Below are positions 1,377 to 38,348 of a stretch of 64,000 nucleotides of DNA, one piece after another. Both the position numbers and the translations under genes were made by a program. The notes below the pieces were generated by a model, which ran no database searches, had not been told where the DNA came from, and saw only the letters and a program-made list of their open reading frames with translations. Source of the DNA: a bacterium (GTDB lineage: Bacteria > Bdellovibrionota_C > UBA2361 > RFPC01); the NCBI GenBank assembly GCA_009926305.1, contig RFPC01000002.1:1932-65931 (forward strand), given 5' to 3'. Each line of letters opens with the position of its first letter. Within the stretch, counting starts at the first letter, position 1.

Positions 1377-1907
1377 ATGTTATCAAGAATTCAAAAATCA
1401 GTATTCACTTTCAATGTGTTTCTTTTACTTCTTGTCAATGTTGCAGACCTTCATGCAAGCACGCTCTGTAACACAGAGCTTAAGCGCTCTCGTTCAGGAA
1501 AAGATTTATATCAAACGAAGGAATTTGCCGCCTATCAGGCGAAAAATGGAGATATCGGACTTCAGATGAGTGATCCATTTCTTCAGTCTCAGGAGGTAAT
1601 TAGGGGAAATGCCGAAGAGGCGGGGTTTACATGGCTCTCGGGAGAAAAGCGAGAATTGAATGGAACGGTAAATGCTTTCGTAGATGTAGTTCAGTGGGAG
1701 GGACATTGGGTTATTATCAAGCACGGGGAGTATATCGCAGTAATTAAAAATAAAACGGTTTCATGTAAGGAGTACAACTCAACTTTCTCCGGTGAGCTTC
1801 AGGGATATCTCTTCTCTCTGTATGAAAAGGCAGATATGAAATCTATAGCTCTTACTCCCGCTTGGACCTTAGCTGAAAAGCTCTTCGGGAATCTTGATAA
1901 CGCTTAA
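1377..1907 (+). CDS. secreted hypothetical protein
   Basis: 176 aa. N-terminal hydrophobic signal-like segment (FTFNVFLLLLVNVADLHAS). No recognisable motif. Confidence 0.4.
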   Translation: MLSRIQKSVFTFNVFLLLLVNVADLHASTLCNTELKRSRSGKDLYQTKEFAAYQAKNGDIGLQMSDPFLQSQEVIRGNAEEAGFTWLSGEKRELNGTVNAFVDVVQWEGHWVIIKHGEYIAVIKNKTVSCKEYNSTFSGELQGYLFSLYEKADMKSIALTPAWTLAEKLFGNLDNA

Positions 1908-2018
1908 TCTTACTCGGATACGGAGCTCGTCTGATCTGAGAGAATAAAATCTTGCACCAATACTCCAAATTCGTCTTAGAGTGTGGCATGCTTTGTCCAT
2001 TCAAGGGGATGATAATTT

Positions 2019-3149
2019 ATGTCAGAGAATGCTAGTAATTATCGAGGATCAAACGTCGCAGAGAATTCTGTAAGAGAGAATTCACATCCAGATTCAGACT
2101 CGCAGGCGAAGCTCGGAGCGCAGCTACTTTCCTATCCAGGGATGTCTGAAGTAGAAAACCTCATTCGTTCGAAGTTTACCTCGAATGCCAGCCTCTTAAC
2201 GGAGATACCCGAGTACCTCCTTGAGCTTGGTGGGAAGCGAATTCGGCCTGCATTGACTCTGTGTACGGCTGATATGTGTGGGATTGCACAAGAATCAAGA
2301 CACGAGTTGTTTGATATTGCCGCTGGAATTGAGCTTATCCATATGGCTACTCTGCTGCATGATGACATCATCGATCACTCTCCTCTCCGCAGAGGGAAAC
2401 CTTCTCCCCATATTACTTTTGGAGAATCAGCCACACTATTAGCTGGAGACTTTCTTCTGGTTCGAGCCTTTTCGCTCTGCGCGCACCTAGACGAGTTTAT
2501 CGTTCAAGAGACAGAGTCAGCGTGCGTGCAGCTGACAGAGGGAGAAATTCTGGAGGCACCGCTATCGAAACAAATATGTACCCAAGAAAGGAGCCTTTTG
2601 ATTGCAGAAAAAAAGACGGCCTCGCTCTTTGGACTAGCCGCTGTATCAGGAGCCCATATTGCCAATGTGCCCAAAGAGGTCGAGGCCTTACTCAAAACCT
2701 TCGGGATAGAGCTCGGCATTGCTTTTCAAGTCCTCGATGATGTTCTTGATGTTGTTGCGGATGAGGGGCTTTTAGGCAAGCGATGTGGCGGAGATCTCGT
2801 CGAACAGAAGCCCTCGATTATTAATGTTCTCTGGCTTGAATCCGGCGACTCGTTCTCAAAGGATGTTCTTTTATCAGAAACTCCTCCCTCGGAGGATATC
2901 GTAAAGGATGCGCTGGAATATCTTCGACAGGGAGATGGTCAGGGTATTGTCCTACAGGCTAAGCAGATCGCCGAGCAAAGGATCCAGAGGGCTGAAAAAG
3001 CCTTGAATAGCGCTGTAGCAATCCTGCAATCTCCTGCTGGCGAAAGTCGTGGAGGTGAAAACGGGAATACTCGAGCAAGGGAATTTTCGTCGTTTGCGCA
3101 CATGCTCCTTACTGGACTCTTAAACTACACCGTTAAGAGACTAAAGTGA
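2019..3149 (+). CDS. ispB: polyprenyl diphosphate synthase (trans-IPPS, IspB-like)
   Basis: Both DDxxD motifs present ('LHDDIIDHSPLRRG' and 'FQVLDDVLD'). 'GGKRIRPALTL' matches the IspB N-terminus. The family start more likely corresponds to Met at about 2142 (MSEVENLIRSKF). Confidence 0.85.
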   Translation: MSENASNYRGSNVAENSVRENSHPDSDSQAKLGAQLLSYPGMSEVENLIRSKFTSNASLLTEIPEYLLELGGKRIRPALTLCTADMCGIAQESRHELFDIAAGIELIHMATLLHDDIIDHSPLRRGKPSPHITFGESATLLAGDFLLVRAFSLCAHLDEFIVQETESACVQLTEGEILEAPLSKQICTQERSLLIAEKKTASLFGLAAVSGAHIANVPKEVEALLKTFGIELGIAFQVLDDVLDVVADEGLLGKRCGGDLVEQKPSIINVLWLESGDSFSKDVLLSETPPSEDIVKDALEYLRQGDGQGIVLQAKQIAEQRIQRAEKALNSAVAILQSPAGESRGGENGNTRAREFSSFAHMLLTGLLNYTVKRLK

Positions 3150-3163
3150 GTAGATCATGCTCG

Positions 3164-4354
3164 CTAAACACGGCCTGTCTCTTGTCCAGGGATTCCGTAG
3201 GCGATATCTTCGAGCTCACGGAGGTGAAGTTTTACATCATCAGGAAGGTATGTTCCACCGCTTCCAGAGTAAGCACCGATGAGAATCTCTCTCAACAGGA
3301 GGAAGCTCTTGCGAGCAAGTTCTGTATCTGCTTGGAGTCGAATGGCACGCTCTAAGAGCATTTCTGGTAGCTCATACATGAAATACCCTGGTAGCTCACG
3401 ATACGCTTGAGCAAGAAGCAACAATTTCTCTGCTTCATTTTTGGCATGTAACGTTGTTCCCTCATTCAGTTCACGATGTATAGTTGCGGTCACTCTTAAG
3501 AGCTCTATAACACCTCCCCCACTGATTTGCTGTTCTTTGTTGAGACCAGACTGAAGTAAGTTCTCAATCGGAGTCTGCGCATCTTTTTCCCACCTTTTTA
3601 GGCCCTGTTCCCAAAGAAACAACTCACTATTCTCTCTTCGTGAAAGTTTACGACCATTTTTATAGTTTCTGAGCTCCTCTAGGATAACCGTGGGATTTTG
3701 TCCCACACGAACTTTAATAGTGAGCCATTTTGCCAACATCCGATCACGTTCGTATGGGATCTCTGACTTTTTAGCAATGGAGAGGAAAGCTGCGGCAGCC
3801 CGCTCAAACTGACGTGATGCCAGTAGATAGTCGGCTATAACCAGCGGATCCTTGATCTCAGAGAAGAACTGCTCATCGAAGGAGGGATTCGGAAACTCGG
3901 CGCCCTTTAGTCGTGTATGGCATGAAATACAGTATTGGCTAAAGCTCTTTATCTGCCATAGCGCATAGCCCCGTTCGCCTTCCTTGAAGCGAGTATTTGC
4001 ATCTTCAACCATTCTTGCGATTGACTGTAAAAGAAAACGATAGGTTGGTTCAGAGGAGAATCGCGATTTTCTTAATTCATCCTTATGAAAAGAATTCTCA
4101 AGGTCGGCCAACAGAGATTGTATCTCCCCGTCAATCTCCCCAGAAAGAAATTTCTTCTCATTAATGGAATGTCTAAATAGCTGATGAAAAGATTGATAGA
4201 GCGTTTGCATCTCTCCCTTAATCTCTTCTGTTGTTGGCAGGTTGGGAGAAGCCTTTGGCGTATCAGCAATAATCAGCAAGGGAGCGGCTAAAAAAACCAT
4301 AAAGAAGGCAATGGTGATTCGGATACGATATATTCGGGCAGTAGTGTGTTTCAT
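3164..4354 (-). CDS. signal-anchored periplasmic protein with single CxxCH motif (putative mono-haem c-type cytochrome domain protein)
   Basis: Likely start MKHTTARIYRIRITIAFFMVFLAAPLLIIA (signal/TM); the long ORF begins 13 codons upstream at 4393. One 'CISCH' haem-c binding motif. Otherwise a helical, charged protein with no other recognisable domain. Confidence 0.35.
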   Translation of the reverse strand: MKHTTARIYRIRITIAFFMVFLAAPLLIIADTPKASPNLPTTEEIKGEMQTLYQSFHQLFRHSINEKKFLSGEIDGEIQSLLADLENSFHKDELRKSRFSSEPTYRFLLQSIARMVEDANTRFKEGERGYALWQIKSFSQYCISCHTRLKGAEFPNPSFDEQFFSEIKDPLVIADYLLASRQFERAAAAFLSIAKKSEIPYERDRMLAKWLTIKVRVGQNPTVILEELRNYKNGRKLSRRENSELFLWEQGLKRWEKDAQTPIENLLQSGLNKEQQISGGGVIELLRVTATIHRELNEGTTLHAKNEAEKLLLLAQAYRELPGYFMYELPEMLLERAIRLQADTELARKSFLLLREILIGAYSGSGGTYLPDDVKLHLRELEDIAYGIPGQETGRV

Positions 4355-4721
4355 TTTGTCACTTCCAAAAAGGAACGCCTGAGATAGTCTCATTTCTCAC
4401 GTTCATCCCCCAGAATCATAACGAAGACATCCTGATTTCTACATATAAATCCTCAGGTATATCGTGCGGGCATTATCTTCGACTCAACTACAGAAAGGCA
4501 GAGCGATATCAAATAACTATAACGATTACAGTTACTTGCTGCCACTAAGGCACCTGCGTGTTTCGCTCAGCCATAACCTTACAAGCTCCCGGAATTGCCG
4601 GCACCGTGAGCTATTCCAGCTACCACTGAATGCTTCAAGCGGTAGAACTGGAGGTACTACGGCATTTTTTTGGGGTTTTCGCACAGGTGATTCATGGATG
4701 AAGCACTGGAGATCATAGATT

Positions 4722-5006
4722 ATGACCCGCGAAAGACTACCACAAATGGACCTCTCCCACTCGTGGGGAAAGGGATACGATCCAGTTCATGAGCTTATGC
4801 GAGCTATTATTCTTCGAGCTGTTGAAGACTATAATTCAAAGGGCGAACTCAAAGAGGAAGCTATTGAATATATGAATTCAGAGGAAGAGGAATATATCTT
4901 CTCATTTCGGGCAATTTGTCGACGATTTGGCTTTGATCCCGATAAGACAAGATACGCAATCATGAATGCCCAACATCGCATCAGTACGAGGCGGCGTGCG
5001 GCATAA
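4722..5006 (+). CDS. hypothetical small protein (94 aa)
   Basis: Intact ORF on the + strand of a divergent intergenic region. No recognisable motif. Confidence 0.35.
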   Translation: MTRERLPQMDLSHSWGKGYDPVHELMRAIILRAVEDYNSKGELKEEAIEYMNSEEEEYIFSFRAICRRFGFDPDKTRYAIMNAQHRISTRRRAA

Positions 5007-5162
5007 TGGTCTTTGAAGAAGAACTTCAAAGGCTTCCCCACTGCGCTGTTGATCACAGTTTGTGCATCTGGGAGGTGGAAATCAGAGGCAACTGAGAAAG
5101 AAACTCTGCTTCCCCTCCCCGATGGATAGCGTAAAGCCGGACAGTTCTGAGAAATCTATTCC

Positions 5163-5432
5163 CTACATCCCGACAGCAGATTGAAGAGCCTCTGAATATT
5201 CCTCTCTTAGCGGTTGACGCGACTGGTAGAGAATGCGAGCTAATTCATCTTTACTTTGTAGTTTTTTGCGTTTCAGGAGAGTAATCTCTTGTTGATCTTC
5301 ACTGGTAAATCCAATTTTCTTTGCCAGAAGTCGCAGCCGTTCTTCATAGCCTTTATGCTTCTTAATTAAACGGCGTACATTTCTATCATTTTTTGCGAGC
5401 CGGGTAAGTTCCAAACGGTCTGAGGTATTCAT
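5163..5432 (-). CDS. DUF465 (YdcH-like) family small protein
   Basis: 89 aa, helical and charged. Pattern L..L......R.LI.KH..YEERL....K.....E.QE...LK..KL..KDELA.IL resembles DUF465. Confidence 0.5.
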   Translation of the reverse strand: MNTSDRLELTRLAKNDRNVRRLIKKHKGYEERLRLLAKKIGFTSEDQQEITLLKRKKLQSKDELARILYQSRQPLREEYSEALQSAVGM

Positions 5433-5683
5433 GACTACTCCTCTATAAAATTAGGCGTACTTCTGAGAGTGGATAGCCGTTCAAAACAAGGCGTAACTGT
5501 CCATATCAGAAAAAAACAGGCGTCTCCTCTCTAACCTGCGTCTCCGTAAGACCAATCCCTTGTATAACGACTACCCCCCAAGAATAACGAGCAGAAAGAG
5601 TGGGTGGTGAACTTTCTACGAACAAAACAGCGGTCTAAAAAAAAGGGCTGTTGTTAAGGGAAGATAAGTACCGAATGCTGATT

Positions 5684-18794: not shown

Positions 18795-20075
18795 CTAATC
18801 AGAGCTATAAATAACGGGCATGGGCTCGCTCACTCGCTCTAGTGAATCGATATATTCCTCGATGACCTCACGGAGTCGCTCCGGTGCGATATCCAATAGA
18901 GTGAGTAATCTCTCCACAACTCCTTGTACCAGCGTATCAGGACAGCTCGCTCCAGAGGTAACTAAAACATCAACCGCGGCCCCGTCTTTTGGGTACCATT
19001 CCGTTGTGATGTGTTCCCTCCCCTCCTCGAGATCAAGGTGCGAAATTTCATTAATACTGATCACATCGGCAGGCCCACTTACAAAATATGTCGGAAACTG
19101 TTCTGCACACAGCTCAACCAAGTGAGATGTATTCGATGAGTTATATCCTCCAACTATAATTGCGATATCACCCCCCGAACGGATCAATTCAAGAGTGGAC
19201 TGTTGATTCTCAGTTGTCGCGTAACACAATGTATCACGAGTATCTGCAAAGTGTACGTCAATATCATCGTCACCATACTTCTCCACCATTCCACTACGTA
19301 AGATAGAACTAATCTCAGCTGTTTCAGTAGCAAGCATGGTCGTCTGATTAATTACACCAATTTTCTCTAAATCAGTGGAAGCAGAAAAAGAAGGCGACAT
19401 TCTTCCAGAAAACCGTTCTTTAAAGGCATCATATGATTCTCGACCGAGTATAAAATTTTTGAGCCACTCGGCCTCATGGACATCTGCTATAATGATACTC
19501 GGTGCCACTCTCGAAGCATGGGAAAATGTTGCCTGAGTCTCCTCATGTCGGGCTTTCCCATGTATGACAATCGAATATCCACGCTCTCCCAGTTGTGTTC
19601 CTCTTTTCCAAACCCTTTCAACAAAGGGACAGGTTGTATTATACCGACGGATATCGACCCCTTTGGCTTCCAGTAGCTCGCACATCTCCAGCGTTGTCCC
19701 AAATGCGGGAATGATAACTATATCTTTCTTTTCGACTTGAGAGAGAGAAATCAACTCTTTCCCATACGTAGAAAATAGAAATTCCACACCGCGTGCACGC
19801 AAGTCAGCATTTACGTGTGGATTATGAATCATCTCTGATAGGAGAAACACTCGCTGTGACGGATTCTCCTCAACTGCGCGATAGGCAATCTCGATAGCAT
19901 TTTCAACTCCGTAGCAAAATCCAAAATGCCTGGCAAATTTAATTCTCAGCTTTCCAAAATCAAGAACGGCAGGTGACTTATCTCGTTTTTTTGTATCGAT
20001 TTCAGAGCGCGCTCTTTTCATATAAGAAATAATGTGCGAGCGATACTGATCTGGAATGTTGAATTTTCTTGGCAT
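18795..20075 (-). CDS. ispH: 4-hydroxy-3-methylbut-2-enyl diphosphate reductase, long form with N- and C-terminal extensions
   Basis: 'FGFCYGVENAIEIA' LytB signature and conserved Cys positions. 426 aa, against about 316 aa for the compact IspH. Confidence 0.9.
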   Translation of the reverse strand: MPRKFNIPDQYRSHIISYMKRARSEIDTKKRDKSPAVLDFGKLRIKFARHFGFCYGVENAIEIAYRAVEENPSQRVFLLSEMIHNPHVNADLRARGVEFLFSTYGKELISLSQVEKKDIVIIPAFGTTLEMCELLEAKGVDIRRYNTTCPFVERVWKRGTQLGERGYSIVIHGKARHEETQATFSHASRVAPSIIIADVHEAEWLKNFILGRESYDAFKERFSGRMSPSFSASTDLEKIGVINQTTMLATETAEISSILRSGMVEKYGDDDIDVHFADTRDTLCYATTENQQSTLELIRSGGDIAIIVGGYNSSNTSHLVELCAEQFPTYFVSGPADVISINEISHLDLEEGREHITTEWYPKDGAAVDVLVTSGASCPDTLVQGVVERLLTLLDIAPERLREVIEEYIDSLERVSEPMPVIYSSD

Positions 20076-30388: not shown

Positions 30389-32314
30389 CTAACGACGTTT
30401 TCCTGCACTGTTCGATGAATATATAGGGAGATGATCGGCAATTTTTGCAATGACGACTTTTCCGATCCTCTCGTCGAAGAAAAAGTGGACTCGAATCTGA
30501 TTCCCTGGCTGATTTCCAAACTTCACATGAGCTTCCGCACATATTGGTTCTCCCTGATAGCTTACAACTCGATGGTTCATCAGCTCACCTCGGGCCTTGG
30601 TCTCTTTCGACTCGGTCATGTTCACCTCGAAGCCAGTTTCAGCTTTGTATCGCTTTGGCTCAAAATTTCCCTCTTCAAACTTCATTTCGAAGAGTCTTGT
30701 CGCCATAGCTTCAAGGAGTTGATTTGCTCTCTTCTGAGCTCCTTTCTTAGAAAGGCATCCTTTTTCAACCATCTCTTCAGCACCGGCGTACGCATCCGGA
30801 TGAATCACCATATTCTCAGAATAGCTCGCTTCCAGGTAGTCGAGAATCTGAAGTAAATTCATCTGCTCTTTTAACGGTTCAAGAATTTTTAAAAGGACCG
30901 TTACTCGCTCTTGCTCTTCTTGTGCTTTAATCTCGAATTGATTTCTATGATGTACCAATTCTCGGGTCGTCGTTTCTAACTCTGTCTCATGCTTCGCTAT
31001 GAGTTCAGCCTTCTCTTGCTTAGTAACACTGTCATAGATGTTCAGCTCCTCCTCTAAACTAGCATTAGCGCTGCGAAGTCTGTTTAACTCTTCCCTCTGC
31101 GCCATATTTTCAGCTTGGAGCTCCGAGAGAGTCGCATTTGTTTGCTTCAGCAGTGCCTCATACCGCTCGGAATCCCTTTGCTCGACACTCAACTCTCGAA
31201 GCTCTTTTGTTTGTCGATTGATGAGCTTTATATTTTCCTCGGATTTTCTAGTATTTTCGAGTAAATCAATATCCTGAATAGTTGCAACGGACAGAGGTGA
31301 ATTGTCTTGAAAAGCCATTCCATTGATTGAACACCGCAGGGCCGAAAGATGGATATCAGAACCTACAAATGGTTGATGCACTAGCTCATTCGTTGATATT
31401 CGAAATTTTCTCATCTCTGAGTCTGCGGACCGCTGCGGATAATACAGTTGAGCAAAGCCCTGAAATGGAATGTCTTCCGACGTCAAACTATGATTGGGAA
31501 GGTAGCCTAATACATCTTGAATCTGCCTCGAGTCCTCTAGTCCATAGACAACTGCAACTCCTCCCAGCGACCTCGCCATTGCTCGCATATCAATCGGATA
31601 TGCGCTATCACCTGCAGGACCATGTATTTTTGCAACGGCCACCGCGAGCAGCTTTCGATCAGGATCACTCATTGCTTTCAAAAACGTATCGGCATTTCTG
31701 CCGTCGATTCGTTGAGGAAGATAACTTACTGGTGCACTGCCAGAAGAGACTCTCCATCTGGTATCGCTGATGATCCGCTGAACAATTCCGGGGGTACTCA
31801 ATGGTGTCGGGTGTATCGCCCCATGGAAATCAGGCGAAACCATCTGTTCATTAAGCAACTTAACCTTAAAGTCCTTTTCACCAACCTGAGATATCCCTAC
31901 ACTCGTCTCCCAAAATCGCGGGTTGAAGTGAAGATCACGCTGAATAAGCCTCATTGCCCAGTGAGTCGGTGTAGGCCCTGCAGCATGCAAGGCAAAAGAG
32001 CGAGTCTCCAATGAAGTATCGAGATAGGCAGAATCTATGGTGTGTCCTGTAATGAAATTCTCGAGAGTTATACCTGCTTCCTGGTTGCCTAATTTTCTCA
32101 GCACCCATTGAAAGACCTCATTATGTAACTCGGCAGGTTCAGCGTCACCCAAATGCACCGTGAGTTCAGTCGCAAAGTTTGGGCGTCGACCGATACCAAG
32201 CCCTCGATCAGAGCCATTAGAGGTCTGAAAGGATTCTCGAAAATGTCTCGGCAATTCGCCTTCAGCACTCAGCTGCTGGCACCAAGCTCGCGATTGCTCA
32301 ATGTTACTGCTCAT
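30389..32314 (-). CDS. large hypothetical multidomain protein (N-domain about 330 aa, about 140-aa coiled-coil, C-domain about 170 aa)
   Basis: 641-aa intact ORF. The central region (about residues 340-480) is heptad-rich (LINRQTKELRELSVEQRD...LNRLRSANASLEEELN). The C-domain contains 'RGELMNH' (Rx5H, HEPN-like) and 'IRVHFFFDERIGKVVIAKIADH'. No family assignable by eye. Confidence 0.5.
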   Translation of the reverse strand: MSSNIEQSRAWCQQLSAEGELPRHFRESFQTSNGSDRGLGIGRRPNFATELTVHLGDAEPAELHNEVFQWVLRKLGNQEAGITLENFITGHTIDSAYLDTSLETRSFALHAAGPTPTHWAMRLIQRDLHFNPRFWETSVGISQVGEKDFKVKLLNEQMVSPDFHGAIHPTPLSTPGIVQRIISDTRWRVSSGSAPVSYLPQRIDGRNADTFLKAMSDPDRKLLAVAVAKIHGPAGDSAYPIDMRAMARSLGGVAVVYGLEDSRQIQDVLGYLPNHSLTSEDIPFQGFAQLYYPQRSADSEMRKFRISTNELVHQPFVGSDIHLSALRCSINGMAFQDNSPLSVATIQDIDLLENTRKSEENIKLINRQTKELRELSVEQRDSERYEALLKQTNATLSELQAENMAQREELNRLRSANASLEEELNIYDSVTKQEKAELIAKHETELETTTRELVHHRNQFEIKAQEEQERVTVLLKILEPLKEQMNLLQILDYLEASYSENMVIHPDAYAGAEEMVEKGCLSKKGAQKRANQLLEAMATRLFEMKFEEGNFEPKRYKAETGFEVNMTESKETKARGELMNHRVVSYQGEPICAEAHVKFGNQPGNQIRVHFFFDERIGKVVIAKIADHLPIYSSNSAGKRR

Positions 32315-32489: not shown

Positions 32490-33377
32490 CTAAATAATAG
32501 AACTCTTTACGAGCTCAAGAGCATGACTCAGACAGTACTCCTCCAATTTTTCAACATCTTCGATGTGAAATCCAGTCTGATCTTTGGGAAGTATAAAAAC
32601 CCCAGAACCACTTCCCGTCATTCCAACCCTTCCGCAGTTAAGAGCTCTCAGCGCCGCCAGGGTTTCCTTCAGCAAACCACAAAGCGATGACGCTGCTATC
32701 TCTAGATCGTTTTGAATTAAGGAAAGAAGCAGTCCATATTCTTCTGGGAAACTATTCGTGGGCTTTTTAACTGAATTCTCCATTCGCGTAGAATATCCAG
32801 CTTCCTGAAACACGACAGGGGTACCGAGATGCGGCAGTCCAAGGATCAGAAATACTGGTGTTGAGCGAAGGGAACTCGAACGGTCAATATGTAATTGCTC
32901 GCCTATACCCCCGACACAGACTTGAGAGGCCCCTCGGAGAAAATAGGGAACGTCAGCTCCGATGGAAAGTGCGAGCTTAGCCAGTTCAACTTCATCAAGT
33001 GGCTGACCTAAAGCTTCATGCACAGCAGATAAAACTGCAGCCGCATTACTACTTCCTCCTCCAAAGCCCCCTCCGGCAGGGATTCTTTTATCGAGTTCTA
33101 TCAGAATATTGACGTCATTTCTTTGCGTTCTTTCAATGAGTCGAATAGCTGCTTGGACACAAAGATTTCCTTTATCATTCGGTATTTCAGAGGAGCCTCT
33201 TCCTTTCATGGAAAAGAGTACGGAACCGTCCCCCCCTTCAAGCCTGATCTGGAGAGTGTCATGGAGTCCTATGAGTACATTCAGCATAGACAGCTCATGG
33301 TAGCCGTCCGTTCTCCGACCAATTATTTTGAGTCGTAAGTTCAATTTTGCATGAGAATGTGTTGTTATCGTCTGCAT
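32490..33377 (-). CDS. ispE: 4-diphosphocytidyl-2-C-methyl-D-erythritol kinase
   Basis: 'AKLNLRLKIIGRRTDGYHEL' IspE N-motif and 'PAGGGFGGGSSNAAAVL' GHMP-kinase motif. The ORF is open to 33542; the family start corresponds to MQTITTHSHAKLNL at about 33377. Confidence 0.85.
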   Translation of the reverse strand: MQTITTHSHAKLNLRLKIIGRRTDGYHELSMLNVLIGLHDTLQIRLEGGDGSVLFSMKGRGSSEIPNDKGNLCVQAAIRLIERTQRNDVNILIELDKRIPAGGGFGGGSSNAAAVLSAVHEALGQPLDEVELAKLALSIGADVPYFLRGASQVCVGGIGEQLHIDRSSSLRSTPVFLILGLPHLGTPVVFQEAGYSTRMENSVKKPTNSFPEEYGLLLSLIQNDLEIAASSLCGLLKETLAALRALNCGRVGMTGSGSGVFILPKDQTGFHIEDVEKLEEYCLSHALELVKSSII

Positions 33378-34212
33378 GGTTGACTCACATCTTATCGGAA
33401 CTGCCCTTGCTGTTGCAAAATCTGCTGCAAAAAAAGCGGGTCTAGAAGCTCGTAGAATACGCGAACAGGGCTCCTTTTCAATTGAAATGAAAGGGAGTAG
33501 AGATCTGGTGACTGAGGCAGACCTTGCATGCGAAACTATCATAGTGGAGACGATACGCGAGTCGTTTCCCGATCACCTTATTCTATCAGAGGAAGCGCCG
33601 CTTCCGAATCTGAAGAGACTGGCGCAAGGTCCACTCTGGATAATTGACCCGATTGATGGCACTACAAACTTCGCTCATGGACACCACTGCGTAGGAGTGT
33701 CGATTGGATTTGCCATCGATGGTATTCGGCAGGTAGGAGTGGTCTACTGTCCTTTTCTTGAGGAGCTATTTTCAGCCTCCCGTGGGGAGGGTGCGTTCTT
33801 AAATGGTTCGCCGATTCACGTTTCTGGTGTTACAAAACCTGAAGAAGCGCTAATTGCCACTGGATTTCCGTATCAACGCTCTAATATTCAGGGGATTATA
33901 CACCGACTAGAGAGTGCCCTTACTCGTTTCCGCGATGTGAGACGTTTAGGTGCCTGCTCTGTTGATATTTGCTTTACAGCGTGTGGGCGACTTGATGGCT
34001 ACTATGAAGATGTAAAGCCATGGGATGTAGCTGCTGGACTCATGATTGCCGAAGAGGCAGGAGCGGTTATTTCAAGATTTTCCGACCCCTACGCCCAATT
34101 TCCCGCCTGGGAGGACCCAGAAAACCTTACTCCGACTGATATCGATGGAACGAACCTCATCGTTAGTGCCCCTGGAATAGCCGAAGCTCTAATACAGGCA
34201 CTTGAAATCTAG
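33376..34212 (+). CDS. inositol monophosphatase family protein (SuhB/CysQ-like)
   Basis: 'WIIDPIDGTTNFAHG' IMPase signature. 278 aa. Confidence 0.85.
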   Translation: MVDSHLIGTALAVAKSAAKKAGLEARRIREQGSFSIEMKGSRDLVTEADLACETIIVETIRESFPDHLILSEEAPLPNLKRLAQGPLWIIDPIDGTTNFAHGHHCVGVSIGFAIDGIRQVGVVYCPFLEELFSASRGEGAFLNGSPIHVSGVTKPEEALIATGFPYQRSNIQGIIHRLESALTRFRDVRRLGACSVDICFTACGRLDGYYEDVKPWDVAAGLMIAEEAGAVISRFSDPYAQFPAWEDPENLTPTDIDGTNLIVSAPGIAEALIQALEI

Positions 34213-34384
34213 AGTTAAATACCACGATTTCTGCCAGTCCTGTTGCAGACCTGGTAGCAAAACAGATAGCGGATTGCATCATGAGCCGTAGTTTCCTATG
34301 GTCTATAAAACAGCTTTCTATTTAAGGCTTTTAGAGAGGGCTCATCTCAGTCCTCAAAAACACGAATGTGAGGAATTCCCTACT

Positions 34385-34807
34385 ATGTATCCAGAAGAGA
34401 TCGTTGAACCATTTCGTAAAGAGCTGACCGCCAATGGTTTTCGAGAATTGAGAACTGAACAGGACGTTAATGATCACTTTCGTCAGGTCGGTGAAGAAGA
34501 GAAAACACTGATAGTCGTTAATTCCGTTTGTGGTTGTGCGGCAGGAATCGCTCGGCCAGGTGTTCTTGCTGCATTATCTTCCGAGGGCATTAAACCACCT
34601 AATCACCTCCTGACAGTTTTTGCAGGACAAGACAAAGCGGCTACAGAAAAAGTAAGGTCCCTGATAGTGGACTATCCTCCATCATCCCCCTCAATCGCGC
34701 TCTTTCATGGAACATCTTGCTCCAAAATGATTCACCGTTCAGACATTGAAGGAAACTCCTTAGACGGTGTAGCGGGACTGGTACGGACTCTGCTCCTCGA
34801 TGACTGA
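34385..34807 (+). CDS. bacilliredoxin BrxA/BrxB family (YphP/YqiW, DUF1094) thiol-disulfide oxidoreductase
   Basis: 'MYPEEIVEPFRKEL' start and 'VVNSVCGCAAG' redox motif characteristic of DUF1094. The ORF is open from 34298. Confidence 0.7.
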   Translation: MYPEEIVEPFRKELTANGFRELRTEQDVNDHFRQVGEEEKTLIVVNSVCGCAAGIARPGVLAALSSEGIKPPNHLLTVFAGQDKAATEKVRSLIVDYPPSSPSIALFHGTSCSKMIHRSDIEGNSLDGVAGLVRTLLLDD

Positions 34808-34821
34808 TCGGATATAGCGAG

Positions 34822-36429
34822 ATGGGTACGGCTCCACACGAACATCCAGTAACAACGGGCGCACGGCTCAGGTCAATAATCTTCTCTGAACAGTGTGACG
34901 GTGAAATCGCGAAGGATCTTCTAGCCTATACCGAAAAGAGTCATGCCAGCTCCCTTAGCCCCCAAAACCTCGCTCAGGTGTTCTATGCGTTGGGAAATCT
35001 AGCTCGCAAAACCCCAGATGTGGAGCGATTATTCCATGTAAATCCAAATAAGGAACGACTGCGTTCCCTTACCAGTATTGCTCGACGTCAACTCGACTCC
35101 TTCGAGGCAAGGAACATATCAGAGACCTTATTTGGGCTTATCGGATTAGGGCAACGTTCTGGACCCTTAGTTACCTCATTAGTCGGAAGAGCTGGCGGCG
35201 AAGTTGAAAACTTTGACTTACCGACGCTGGTTCATTGTCTTGGAAGCTTATGCTCACTCAATGTAGAAGAGCGTTTCCAAATGCATTTTGCTCTGCCCGC
35301 TTTTGAACGATTAGAGAGAGATTCTGATAGCCTGACCGATACTGATTTGGCTCGTGGATTACTTTATGCCTCTAAATTACTGCTCGATACTCAAGTAACA
35401 GCCCTTGAAGAAAAATGTCTCGAGAGAATTACGAAGTTTACCTCCTTCGAACTCGGCATTCTTCACGGTGCGAGTAAAATCTCTGGCTCTGAGTTTAGTC
35501 AAGATATCCTTGAAGAAGTAACTCGGAGACTCCAACATCAACCAGAAGAACTCAAGAGCAAGCAAATATTTGAATTCATGACTCACCAACTTCGTGCTGG
35601 CTTAGCGCATGATGGATTTATAGAAGGGCTCATACCGGAAATATCGAATCGGCTTGATGGATGGTCTTGCTCCGAATGTATAGACGCACTTCACTATCTT
35701 GCATATTTTAATGCGCGGGAAGAAACATTACAGAACCAGCTGGGAGATAGGATAGCTCTCGAGATTGATTCTCTTACGTGGCATGAACGAGCGATAACGA
35801 CTTGGTCCTTTGCTCGTCTCAACATACCCCATCAACCCCTGCTTACAGCCATAGAAGAACGAATAGGTGAGCTCCAGTCCAAAATATGTTCTCCACAAGA
35901 TCTTGCCACCTTAGCTTGGAGCTATGCATTATTAGAAAAGGATAATGCAAAAGAAATTGTCAACACTATTTCCTCAATCTTCGAAACTGAAGCATCAGGA
36001 CCACAAGAACAGCGACAAATGTATCATGCAAAAGTTGCCTTGGGACTATCGTCACCTGGAAGCTATGCTAAGCCCATTCAAGAATTAGCTGAACAGGAGA
36101 TTCGAGCGCACAAAAAGAATGGTTTTGAACGAGAAGTACTGAGTCACTTAAAAAACTTTGAGCCGGCAATCAAGCTTTACACTGAAACGATCATAGAAGG
36201 ACTCTGTCCAGATTTTGTTATCTTCGCTGACAATCGGAAAATTATATTGGAGACAGATGGCGTACGCTATCACCATCTATCAGACGGGACTCCAAAGGGT
36301 AATGATATACTTCAGGATACCATTATGAAACGAGCAGGGTACGAGGTGCGACATGTGACTGATCAAGAATGGTATGCTTTGAATAATCGAGAGAAGGAAG
36401 CTTTTCTCAGAGATCTTCTCTCTCTCTAG
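34822..36429 (+). CDS. protein with FASTK-like helical repeats and C-terminal RAP/DUF559 (Vsr-like PD-(D/E)XK fold) domain
   Basis: Repeated about 35-aa helical units (LAQVFYALGNL, ISETLFGLIGL, LPTLVHCLGSL, LARGLLYASKL, CIDALHYLAYF, ITTWSFARLN, LATLAWSYALLE). The C-terminus 'PDFVIFADNRKIILETDGVRYHH...RAGYEVRHVTDQEWYALNNREKEAFLRDLL' matches the RAP/DUF559 pattern (ExDG..H ... GW.V..V...EW). 535 aa. Confidence 0.55.
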   Translation: MGTAPHEHPVTTGARLRSIIFSEQCDGEIAKDLLAYTEKSHASSLSPQNLAQVFYALGNLARKTPDVERLFHVNPNKERLRSLTSIARRQLDSFEARNISETLFGLIGLGQRSGPLVTSLVGRAGGEVENFDLPTLVHCLGSLCSLNVEERFQMHFALPAFERLERDSDSLTDTDLARGLLYASKLLLDTQVTALEEKCLERITKFTSFELGILHGASKISGSEFSQDILEEVTRRLQHQPEELKSKQIFEFMTHQLRAGLAHDGFIEGLIPEISNRLDGWSCSECIDALHYLAYFNAREETLQNQLGDRIALEIDSLTWHERAITTWSFARLNIPHQPLLTAIEERIGELQSKICSPQDLATLAWSYALLEKDNAKEIVNTISSIFETEASGPQEQRQMYHAKVALGLSSPGSYAKPIQELAEQEIRAHKKNGFEREVLSHLKNFEPAIKLYTETIIEGLCPDFVIFADNRKIILETDGVRYHHLSDGTPKGNDILQDTIMKRAGYEVRHVTDQEWYALNNREKEAFLRDLLSL

Positions 36430-37778: not shown

Positions 37779-38348
37779 CTATATCGTCAAAGCAGGTATA
37801 AGAAATAGATACACAACTGAGGCAACCGCAGAAAGAATACCGCACAGGAATGAAAGATATGCCAACCGTACATAGCGCAACTTTTCCTTTGCCAAATATT
37901 GACCTAAATCGTAGATCTCTCTTACCTGCACGCGATAAGCAAGCGCGTGGTCTTTCAGAACTCCTTCCCACGCTCTTTCAAACTCTTCATACGGTATGTT
38001 TATAAAGTTTCCAAAAAACAAAGAGCGCATAGCATCAAACGGCACTTCATGACTGAGACGTGTCGTCGTCTTACCAAATTTTTTGGGCATTACAGCGTAA
38101 ACCGCGAACAAAACGGTAAACACTCCAGAGATAATAAGAGAAATGGCTATCATCTCAAGCTCTGGCTTTAGAAGCAGTGGTGCGCTCAGAGTAATAATCA
38201 GAGAGCTAATAGTTATCAGCATATTGGCCTTCGTATCAATCATCATACTAATTTGTTGATGATGAAGACGCGTCTGGCGAATAAGATGATCGAAGTGTGA
38301 TCCAGGTTCTTTTACCTCAAACTGACGCATTGCTTCAGAGCCCTCCAT
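37779..38348 (-). CDS. small 2-TM membrane protein, possibly Pycsar-effector-like (DUF5706)
   Basis: 189 aa. N-terminal cytoplasmic helical region with 'DTKANMLITISSLIITL' leading into TM1, and a second TM at the C-terminus. The family call is from memory of the motif and is weak. Confidence 0.3.
   Translation of the reverse strand: MEGSEAMRQFEVKEPGSHFDHLIRQTRLHHQQISMMIDTKANMLITISSLIITLSAPLLLKPELEMIAISLIISGVFTVLFAVYAVMPKKFGKTTTRLSHEVPFDAMRSLFFGNFINIPYEEFERAWEGVLKDHALAYRVQVREIYDLGQYLAKEKLRYVRLAYLSFLCGILSAVASVVYLFLIPALTI

Follow-up and report, generated by a model that had tools for sequence, protein, structure and literature searches.

A vertically inherited bacterial protein that pairs a FAST_1-like helical-repeat array with a putative MTES_1575/Vsr-type nuclease domain

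Helical-repeat proteins that end in a RAP domain play a central part in organellar gene expression; they comprise the animal FASTKs and the OPR-RAP and HPR-RAP proteins of algae, plants, apicomplexans and kinetoplastids. According to reviews, bacteria have no FAST_1, HPR or fastk genes (PMC5737537, PMC6212722, PMC12687428), and a RAP domain on its own is on record from a few bacteria and archaea (PMC5737537, PMC8190603). What, then, is the nature of a protein of this architecture encoded on a bacterial chromosome, and where does it come from? The question is raised by a gene, here termed repeat-nuclease, located in a 64,000-nucleotide stretch (the window) of contig RFPC01000002.1 (assembly GCA_009926305.1, positions 1,932 to 65,931 of the forward strand), which belongs to the Bdellovibrionota_C lineage. 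The protein combines an α-solenoid that shares homology with the HPR/OPR/FAST_1 arrays found in organellar RNA-binding proteins with a C-terminal domain that displays a Vsr-like fold and near-invariant active-site-like residues. Judged by its profile matches, it is best described as a bacterial FAST_1-like-repeat/MTES_1575-type putative nuclease. A sequence-only reading of the window had called the open reading frame (ORF) at 34822-36429, and both its coordinates and the C-terminal sequence then quoted were recovered. The 535-residue product (P0001) is identical to NCBI EBR25_00605, annotated as 'hypothetical protein [bacterium]'. The features of the gene are as follows.

34822..36429, plus strand: repeat-nuclease gene, complete (ORF listing; ATG start, 535 residues plus stop codon)
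34822..34896, plus strand: N-terminal cap, residues 1-25 (motif HEHP..TG.RLR.IIF in the family alignment; DSSP helix 9-20)
34897..36069, plus strand: α-solenoid of ten HPR/OPR/FAST_1-like helical-hairpin repeats, residues 26-416 (mean unit 38 residues)
35803..35940, plus strand: Pfam FAST_1 match, residues 328-373, repeats 8-9 (23.3 bits, below the cut-off of 27.4)
36070..36114, plus strand: connecting helix from array to nuclease domain, residues 417-431 (DSSP helix 417-429)
36115..36426, plus strand: C-terminal Vsr/MTES_1575/RAP-type PD-(D/E)XK nuclease-fold domain, residues 432-535
36211..36273, plus strand: putative catalytic core strands, residues 464-484, PD464F...E477-T478-D479-G480..Y483-H484 (from conservation)
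36250..36414, plus strand: Pfam RAP match, residues 477-531, including the tail EW..L....EK..FL..LL (31.5 bits against a gathering score of 24.2)
36304..36354, plus strand: second conserved block, residues 495-511, D495..Q498-D499...G506.E.V.H511 (from conservation)

An AlphaFold2 model, built from five sequences only (mean pLDDT 89.5, pTM 0.76), displays a short N-terminal cap, ten repeat units, a connecting helix and a C-terminal α/β domain. DSSP assigns each of the ten units a helix, a 3-10 turn and a second helix, spanning 35-41 residues with a mean of 38.0; the repeat array proposed in the sequence-only reading thus holds, while its count of about 12 units of roughly 35 residues does not. 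Sequence cut at the structural boundaries presents the consensus ..L..R...e.dsl.spqeLa..Lhsla.Lg, and profile-to-profile alignment of one half of the array with the other gives P = 1.6e-5 over 145 columns. Single-sequence BLOSUM autocorrelation peaks at a lag of 37 residues with z of 2.6-2.9, below the shuffle 95th percentile of 3.42 and therefore not significant alone, so that the repeats were called by profile-profile comparison and structure. The tandem, degenerate, 37-38-residue units with two antiparallel helices form an α-solenoid of the HPR/OPR kind, and a search of the PDB with the repeat profile retrieved RESC6 (5e-11), mL115 (1e-8), RESC8 (1e-5) and Toxoplasma mS140 (7.5e-4), in keeping with the heptatricopeptide/OPR resemblance noticed earlier. 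The top fold matches include many Toxoplasma, Polytomella and Chlamydomonas chains, and the structurally characterised homologues of the array are all RNA binders or parts of RNA-protein machines. Among fold and sequence matches, the architecture is overwhelmingly eukaryotic and organellar, as had been anticipated. Of the two domains named in the earlier comparison, FAST_1 is matched below threshold by the window protein and at up to 1.2e-14 by its relatives, whereas FAST_2, expected between FAST_1 and RAP, gave no match in the window protein even at E ≤ 10. The first half of the nuclease fold, equivalent to the FAST_2 part, is covered by MTES_1575.

The C-terminal domain satisfies Pfam RAP (PF08373), as the sequence-only reading had predicted from the terminal pattern, with an E value of 1.8e-7 and coverage of positions 2-57 of the 58-position model. 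The match to REase_MTES_1575 (PF18741), over residues 435-529, scores 26.6 bits and misses the cut-off of 38.2, and the relatives score 27.7-41.7 bits, with only P0016 passing. The Vsr-like α/β arrangement is present: a conserved Asp lies on strand 2, and strand 3 carries E-x-D-G with a His after it. The fold matches of this domain alone are the DNA endonucleases Vsr, I-Bth0305I and 3hrl. The window protein reads ETDGVRYH ... LQDTIM ... GYEVRHVTDQEW, and the core motif of eukaryote-type RAP domains, EVDGP.H(F/Y) ... K.R.L ... GW.V..IPY.EW, is not found. With a RAP match above threshold, a sub-threshold FAST_1 signal and a ten-unit solenoid, the protein departs from the outcome that would have contradicted the sequence-only reading, namely matches to generic DUF559 only and no repeat periodicity. 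The structural part of that reading is supported. NCBIfam contains no meaningful match to the protein.

How widespread is this architecture? A word-indexed search of 5.8 billion proteins retrieved five relatives, the method being insensitive for this family (5-6 matches per search), and a single-protein search of genome contigs for related loci gave none. An exhaustive search with a profile hidden Markov model (HMM) of 1.84 billion cluster representatives retrieved 2,945 proteins at E ≤ 1e-3, 891 at ≤ 1e-10 and 44 at ≤ 1e-30, FAST_1-rich proteins appearing with E = 1e-65 to 1e-37. Flavours of the C-terminal domain were classified among the best 150 of the 2,945 matches. Thirty-six, including the window protein, carry the bacterial-type signature (P/T)DF..ECDG..(Y/F)H..G.D..QD..GY.V.HI..EW, and 32 carry the classical RAP signature.D(I/F)..EVDGP.H(F/Y)..K.R.L..GW.V..IPY.EW..L..EK..YL. 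Named eukaryote-type members are protists (Aureococcus, the haptophyte Chrysotila, annotated as 'RAP domain-containing protein', and an MMETSP transcript), and those tested gave strong matches to FAST_1, DUF1601 and DUF6832. Bacterial-type members lie on contigs of up to 261 kb and include metagenome-assembled genome (MAG) entries named Pseudomonadota and Desulfobacterales, and Joint Genome Institute (JGI) annotation labels them 'very-short-patch-repair endonuclease'. A Pfam scan of 39 bacterial-type members (E ≤ 0.01) found MTES_1575 in all 39, FAST_1 in 24 (best 1.2e-14), RAP in 20, DUF6832 in 13 and DUF559 in 11; on these profile matches, RAP membership is marginal at the family level. The back-translated signature, a hand-made degenerate DNA pattern with a fixed 8-residue spacing from the His to the G.D..QD block, occurs in at least two of 185,579 GTDB species genomes (a Bdellovibrionota MAG and a 'Pseudomonadota' MAG) and at least four JGI metagenome contigs, minimum counts, since members with any other spacing escape the pattern; viral contigs contained no match.

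Conservation of the putative active site was assessed over 38 bacterial-type cluster representatives with at most 50% mutual identity, and residues at the putative Vsr-type positions, whose retention the sequence-only reading had marked for checking, are near-invariant. D464, E477, D479, G480 and D495 are each present in 38/38, H484 and H511 each in 37/38, and Q498 in 36/38, while D499 is found in 33/38 with Glu in three more. E436 and F435 are each retained in 35 of the 36 aligned representatives. D495, H511, E436 and F435 had no part in defining the bacterial-type class. By motif, and from what is known of Vsr and DUF559, we take the PD464F segment to be the Vsr catalytic Asp strand, E477-x-D479-G the next strand and H484 the Vsr His, and the active-site residues may thus correspond to Vsr D51/T63/H64/H69. 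Residue 478 (codon 36253-36255), located between the putative catalytic Glu and Asp, is Thr in the window protein and Cys in 36/38 representatives. A gene for a thiol oxidoreductase with a CGC motif lies directly upstream in the sub-lineage of the window protein, and a redox tie to residue 478 is a speculative thought.

Repeat-nuclease belongs to the chromosome of Bdellovibrionota-type bacteria and is passed on vertically; it is probably not a recent eukaryotic import. It is a single-copy gene among housekeeping genes on an ordinary bacterial chromosome. Its GC content of 0.444 makes it slightly AT-richer than its neighbours (0.475 ± 0.017), its codon usage is unremarkable (rank 20/43), and no mobile-element genes surround it in the window. 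The best named relatives of the MutL encoded in the window come from Bdellovibrionales (61%) and from Bdellovibrionota and Oligoflexia MAGs. Every bacterial-type locus that was opened has bacterial neighbours (mutS/rpsA/pnp, tyrS, mur ligase, COX1/2, fliD, ilvA) and a GC content of 45-61%. Representatives are otherwise 17-47% identical to the window protein, and the genes at L004, L005 and L013/L014 occupy the same slot (CoA-binding protein/epimerase-DUF1731/YqeY) with products only 31-57% identical, which points to long vertical inheritance. The cap motif HEHP..TG.RLR.IIF has a similar version in the L004 and L005 proteins. Repeat-nuclease is a real gene and not a chance ORF, since a full-length orthologue 47% identical, at L003, keeps the same upstream neighbour and since strain variants keep the frame. 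These variants, from two other JGI metagenomes (L019, 889-2496; L020, 8778-10385), are near-identical, with an intact frame and the whole neighbourhood kept. They present 7-9 amino-acid replacements against 0-2 per neighbouring gene, none at the putative catalytic positions, and dN/dS values of 0.39-1.34, uninformative as they derive from only 11-14 substitutions.

Several family members display variations on the architecture. The repeat-nuclease module stands C-terminal to a transketolase, in a single protein, in three separate clusters (P0009 at L010, 6001-9714; P0016 at L015, 6001-8733, and L016, 2144-4876; P0014). The transketolase part is complete in P0009 (N, pyrimidine-binding and C domains), whose locus also codes for a normal split transketolase, and has a degenerate N domain in P0014 and P0016. 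At L011 two repeat-nuclease genes stand in tandem, the first (1802-3727) with an intact ECDG..FH..QD motif and the second (3751-5523) with very regular FAST_1-like repeats and a degenerate IRCLRD motif, and their sequences suggest an active/inactive pair. P0162, encoded at L007 (5796-7796) on a contig of 71% GC, presents FAST_1/RESC6-type repeats together with a small methyltransferase (MTS) domain in place of the nuclease; ILVD is split into two ORFs on this contig.

The nearest neighbour of the window gene lies immediately upstream.

34298..34807, plus strand: bacilliredoxin-like (PF06491, CGC motif) gene (Pfam Disulph_isomer, E = 9.6e-47, from residue 31)

The true start of this gene is probably the ATG at 34385. 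Its stop codon and the start of repeat-nuclease are separated by 14 nucleotides, in which no terminator-like site was found, and the same pair recurs in L003 with a gap of 4 nucleotides; the two genes are probably co-transcribed. The bacilliredoxin-like neighbour is absent at the other family loci examined, and the linkage is lineage-specific; no recurring partner gene of any kind was found at the family loci examined. Promoter and terminator scans stayed at background level, and Rfam and tRNA scans of the window returned tRNA-Gln only, with no structured RNA near repeat-nuclease. The window also carries genes for prs, ispE, an inositol monophosphatase, a GT87 glycosyltransferase, methylmalonyl-CoA mutase, propionyl-CoA carboxylase, TolB, FeoB, IspH, a Na+-pyrophosphatase and a CckA-like kinase. 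The IspH (18795-20075, minus strand) is of the long form, scoring 458.7 bits with NCBIfam PRK13371 against a cut-off of 440. The ispE-like ORF (32490-33542, minus strand) overlaps the divergent inositol-monophosphatase gene (33376-34212, plus strand) by 167 nucleotides, and its GHMP kinase domain extends from residue 126 onward, so that the start given in the ORF list probably lies too far upstream. Downstream of repeat-nuclease, 37779-38348 (minus strand) encodes a 189-residue membrane protein matching PycTM, the TM domain of Pycsar effectors (Pfam 2e-13, PADLOC 4e-9), with no adjoining cyclase gene, and a PycTM-like gene also adjoins the orthologue in L003 (2866-3285, minus strand). A 641-residue protein encoded at 30389-32314 (minus strand) matches HEC-07, a candidate defence model of PADLOC (1.1e-20), and, weakly, NsnC, and has no Pfam or NCBIfam match.

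The relation between bacterial- and eukaryote-type domains was addressed with a neighbour-joining tree of members drawn from the best 150 HMM matches (77 columns, capped distances, 100 bootstraps). The two types separate fully, the split being perfect in 82/100 and near-perfect in 97/100 bootstraps, although this is partly circular because the type labels were defined from motif columns inside the alignment. P0163, in which a bacterial MTES_1575/DUF559 domain (..AVECDGDRYH..) is fused to a helicase, groups with the bacterial type in 69/100 bootstraps. As far as this alignment can tell, the bacterial domain clearly does not fall inside a eukaryotic RAP subfamily in the present sample, and the tree offers no backing for horizontal transfer from a eukaryote, which the sequence-only reading had put up for checking. 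The bacterial domain looks like a bridge, with what would be an MTES_1575-type catalytic strand joined to a RAP-type C-terminal helix. Some genes with eukaryote-type domains are themselves arranged in an unusual manner. At L022 (40-5345; 28% GC) three tandem FAST_1 plus eukaryote-type RAP genes lie 35-130 bp apart beside two leucine-rich repeat (LRR) genes, and at L021 (2-4682; ~40% GC) three such genes overlap by 8 nucleotides. Eukaryote-type genes are not necessarily all eukaryotic, the packing at L021 and L022 being like that of effector repertoires of intracellular bacteria, or of viruses.

What might the protein do? With a probability of roughly 55%, we favour a modular cytoplasmic endonuclease, vertically inherited and acting on the cell's own transcripts, in which the ten-repeat solenoid targets a nucleic acid that the Vsr-type domain cuts. 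Residues 26-416 would recognise a specific target, somewhat more likely RNA than DNA, and would position residues 432-535 for cleavage by the E436/D464/E477/D479/H484 constellation, probably with a divalent metal. The substrate would most plausibly be endogenous transcripts, with processing or turnover of particular RNAs as the outcome. The preference for RNA comes from the repeat array, whose characterised homologues all bind RNA. The precedent for a repeat-guided endonuclease is FASTKD5, which cleaves RNA clients in vitro and needs both its heptatricopeptide repeats and its nuclease-like region (PMC12242768), and in FASTK chimeras the upstream region sets RNA targeting (PMC5449608). Several observations weigh against this proposal, in which we infer both nuclease activity and substrate. 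The nearest flavour of the nuclease domain (MTES_1575, DUF559, Vsr, I-Bth0305I) is that of DNA enzymes, and an acidic to neutral pI (5.3-7.0) sets the window protein and its relatives apart from most RNA-binding solenoids. FASTKD4, of the same fold, is reported to be catalytically inactive (PMC11879112), and the essential D429 and metal independence of FASTKD5 (PMC12242768) suggest that RAP-family chemistry may differ from that of Vsr. Moreover, no RNA-metabolism partner gene recurs near the family members examined.

The nuclease flavour and the acidic to neutral proteins make a DNA target a serious rival, in which the domain would nick or cut DNA in repair, recombination or a restriction-like process while the solenoid binds DNA or protein partners in an mTERF- or TALE-like manner. 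The presence of MTES_1575 in all 39 scanned members and of DUF559 in 11, an ECDG..YH strand identical to that of the helicase-fused protein, the fold matches to Vsr, I-Bth0305I and 3hrl, the JGI labels and single loci adjoining an HhH-GPD glycosylase (L001) or mutS (L008) all point this way. The RNA-binding company of the repeat array nevertheless speaks for the other substrate, the DNA-repair genes are not repeated at the other loci examined (and rpsA and pnp also lie close by in L008), and the N-terminal DNA-intercalating region of Vsr has no counterpart, the solenoid standing in its place. We regard DNA as the less likely target, and as the foremost alternative to RNA. A non-catalytic adaptor or scaffold that stabilises RNA or assembles a ribonucleoprotein, similar to FASTKD4 or mitoribosomal RAP proteins, would agree with the retention of a Vsr-like cavity in the inactive FASTKD4 (PMC11879112), with the many structural mitoribosomal proteins among the best structural matches and with the L011 paralogue, whose lost catalytic motif indicates that inactive versions exist in bacteria. 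It is improbable, because the acidic and His positions are near-invariant in at least 38 clusters that otherwise share only 17-47% identity with the window protein, a constancy for which catalysis or metal binding would be the ready explanation.

The host phylum is known for predation on bacteria, which counts against an effector acquired horizontally from a eukaryote and delivered into a eukaryotic host or prey against organellar RNA. Such an origin would account for the overwhelmingly eukaryotic, organellar architecture, and would place the protein beside the repeat-plus-RAP proteins of intracellular Orientia and Rickettsiella (PMC7729196; bioRxiv 10.64898/2026.07.12.738046) and the tandem eukaryote-type RAP genes, with LRR genes beside them, of the AT-rich contig L022. 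It is very improbable, however, given synteny at 31-47% identity, native composition and single-copy housekeeping surroundings, the separate bacterial-type clade, the lack of viral-contig matches and an N-terminus in which inspection revealed no hydrophobic stretch resembling a signal peptide. Slightly less credible still is a nuclease effector of an anti-phage defence system, a role to which the nuclease domain, the PycTM-like membrane protein nearby in the window and L003, and the HEC-07 match 2.5 kb upstream might point. The gene itself has no PADLOC match, the PycTM-like gene lacks a cyclase, and the family occupies conserved housekeeping slots instead of defence islands, with no mobile-element genes around the window member. 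This reading was rejected for want of both a PADLOC match and a defence-island context.

If repeat-nuclease proteins are not derived from eukaryotes, could the reverse hold? A rather doubtful but attractive scenario is that the bacterial family represents the prokaryotic stock of eukaryotic FASTK/HPR/OPR-RAP proteins. A fusion of a FAST_1-type solenoid with a Vsr/MTES_1575-type nuclease would have arisen in bacteria and passed to early eukaryotes, in which the nuclease domain would have diverged into 'RAP' as the family expanded. The joining of a bacterial MTES_1575-type strand to a RAP-type C-terminal helix, the position of the bacterial clade outside the eukaryote-type RAPs and the synteny kept at ~31% identity fit this order of events.

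How, then, should the protein be placed among known systems? It passes RAP, narrowly fails FAST_1 and MTES_1575 and lacks FAST_2, and is for these reasons not to be filed as a FASTK and only marginally as a RAP protein. In contrast to the animal FASTKs (FASTK and FASTKD1-5, in particular FASTKD4, PDB code 9gek, and FASTKD5), it has neither a mitochondrial presequence nor a FAST_2 match, is acidic and resides in a bacterium, a domain of life said in review to lack fastk genes (PMC12687428); the FASTK criterion of mitochondrial localisation or role is inapplicable, the host being bacterial. FASTKD4 presents Asn at the His position (PMC11879112), whereas the window protein keeps the His in a strand of the bacterial ECDG..YH type. 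The OPR-RAP and HPR-RAP proteins (Chlamydomonas mL115 and other mitoribosomal OPR proteins, Arabidopsis RAP, Toxoplasma and Plasmodium RAP proteins) share with it the ~38-residue helical-hairpin repeats, with the motif ...f.pq.la..lwAla.lg, and the RAP tail EW..L...EK..(Y/F)L, the profile reaching mL115 as described above. They differ in domain flavour, EVDGP.H(F/Y)...K.R.L...GW.V..IPY against (P/T)DF..E(C/T)DG..YH...QD...GY.V.H in a separate clade, and are organelle-targeted and hugely expanded, while the window gene is single-copy. The trypanosome proteins RESC6 and RESC8 belong to a large multi-protein mitochondrial complex, the RNA-editing substrate-binding complex, and are not known to be nucleases.

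Vsr itself, ~155 residues long, stands alone; it nicks T:G mismatches, and its gene is linked to that of a Dcm methyltransferase. The window protein, by contrast, has 535 residues with a 400-residue solenoid, and no cytosine methyltransferase was found among the window neighbours examined. Bacterial Vsr-fold restriction endonuclease (REase) domains (MTES_1575 PF18741, DUF559 PF04480, Vsr, I-Bth0305I) are fused to helicase, HEPN or winged helix-turn-helix domains or stand alone (PMC3710099), and none of those examined or described in that work carries an HPR/OPR-type solenoid. From REase_MTES_1575 proper the window protein is set apart by its sub-threshold score and RAP-type C-terminal helix, and from Pycsar and other anti-phage systems by the missing PADLOC match and cyclase. 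The closest bacterial parallels are Orientia tsutsugamushi KJV97331.1, Ca. Rickettsiella isopodorum and the SKWP/RipS type III effectors, which possess helical repeats, with RAP in Orientia and Rickettsiella (PMC7729196; bioRxiv 10.64898/2026.07.12.738046). These are described as host-associated and read as effectors; the present family is chromosomal and syntenic and belongs to Bdellovibrionota-type bacteria that are probably free-living or predatory.

The Orientia and Rickettsiella proteins are mentioned in passing in the works just cited, and a literature search found no description of the Bdellovibrionota-type family. What is new here is a bacterial form of a known repeat-plus-nuclease architecture, not a new category. 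A vertically inherited bacterial family with this architecture and a strictly conserved putative active site qualifies the statements that such proteins are absent from bacteria. If the substrate is RNA, it would represent a type of bacterial site-specific endoribonuclease that is without description in the literature searched. Biochemistry of helical-repeat RAP proteins has been held back by insoluble proteins and by doubt over which members are catalytic (PMC5737537, PMC12687428), and the family supplies a bacterial protein, cytoplasmic by nature, for the dissection of repeat-guided cleavage, as well as an outgroup or candidate ancestor with which to test where RAP proteins came from.

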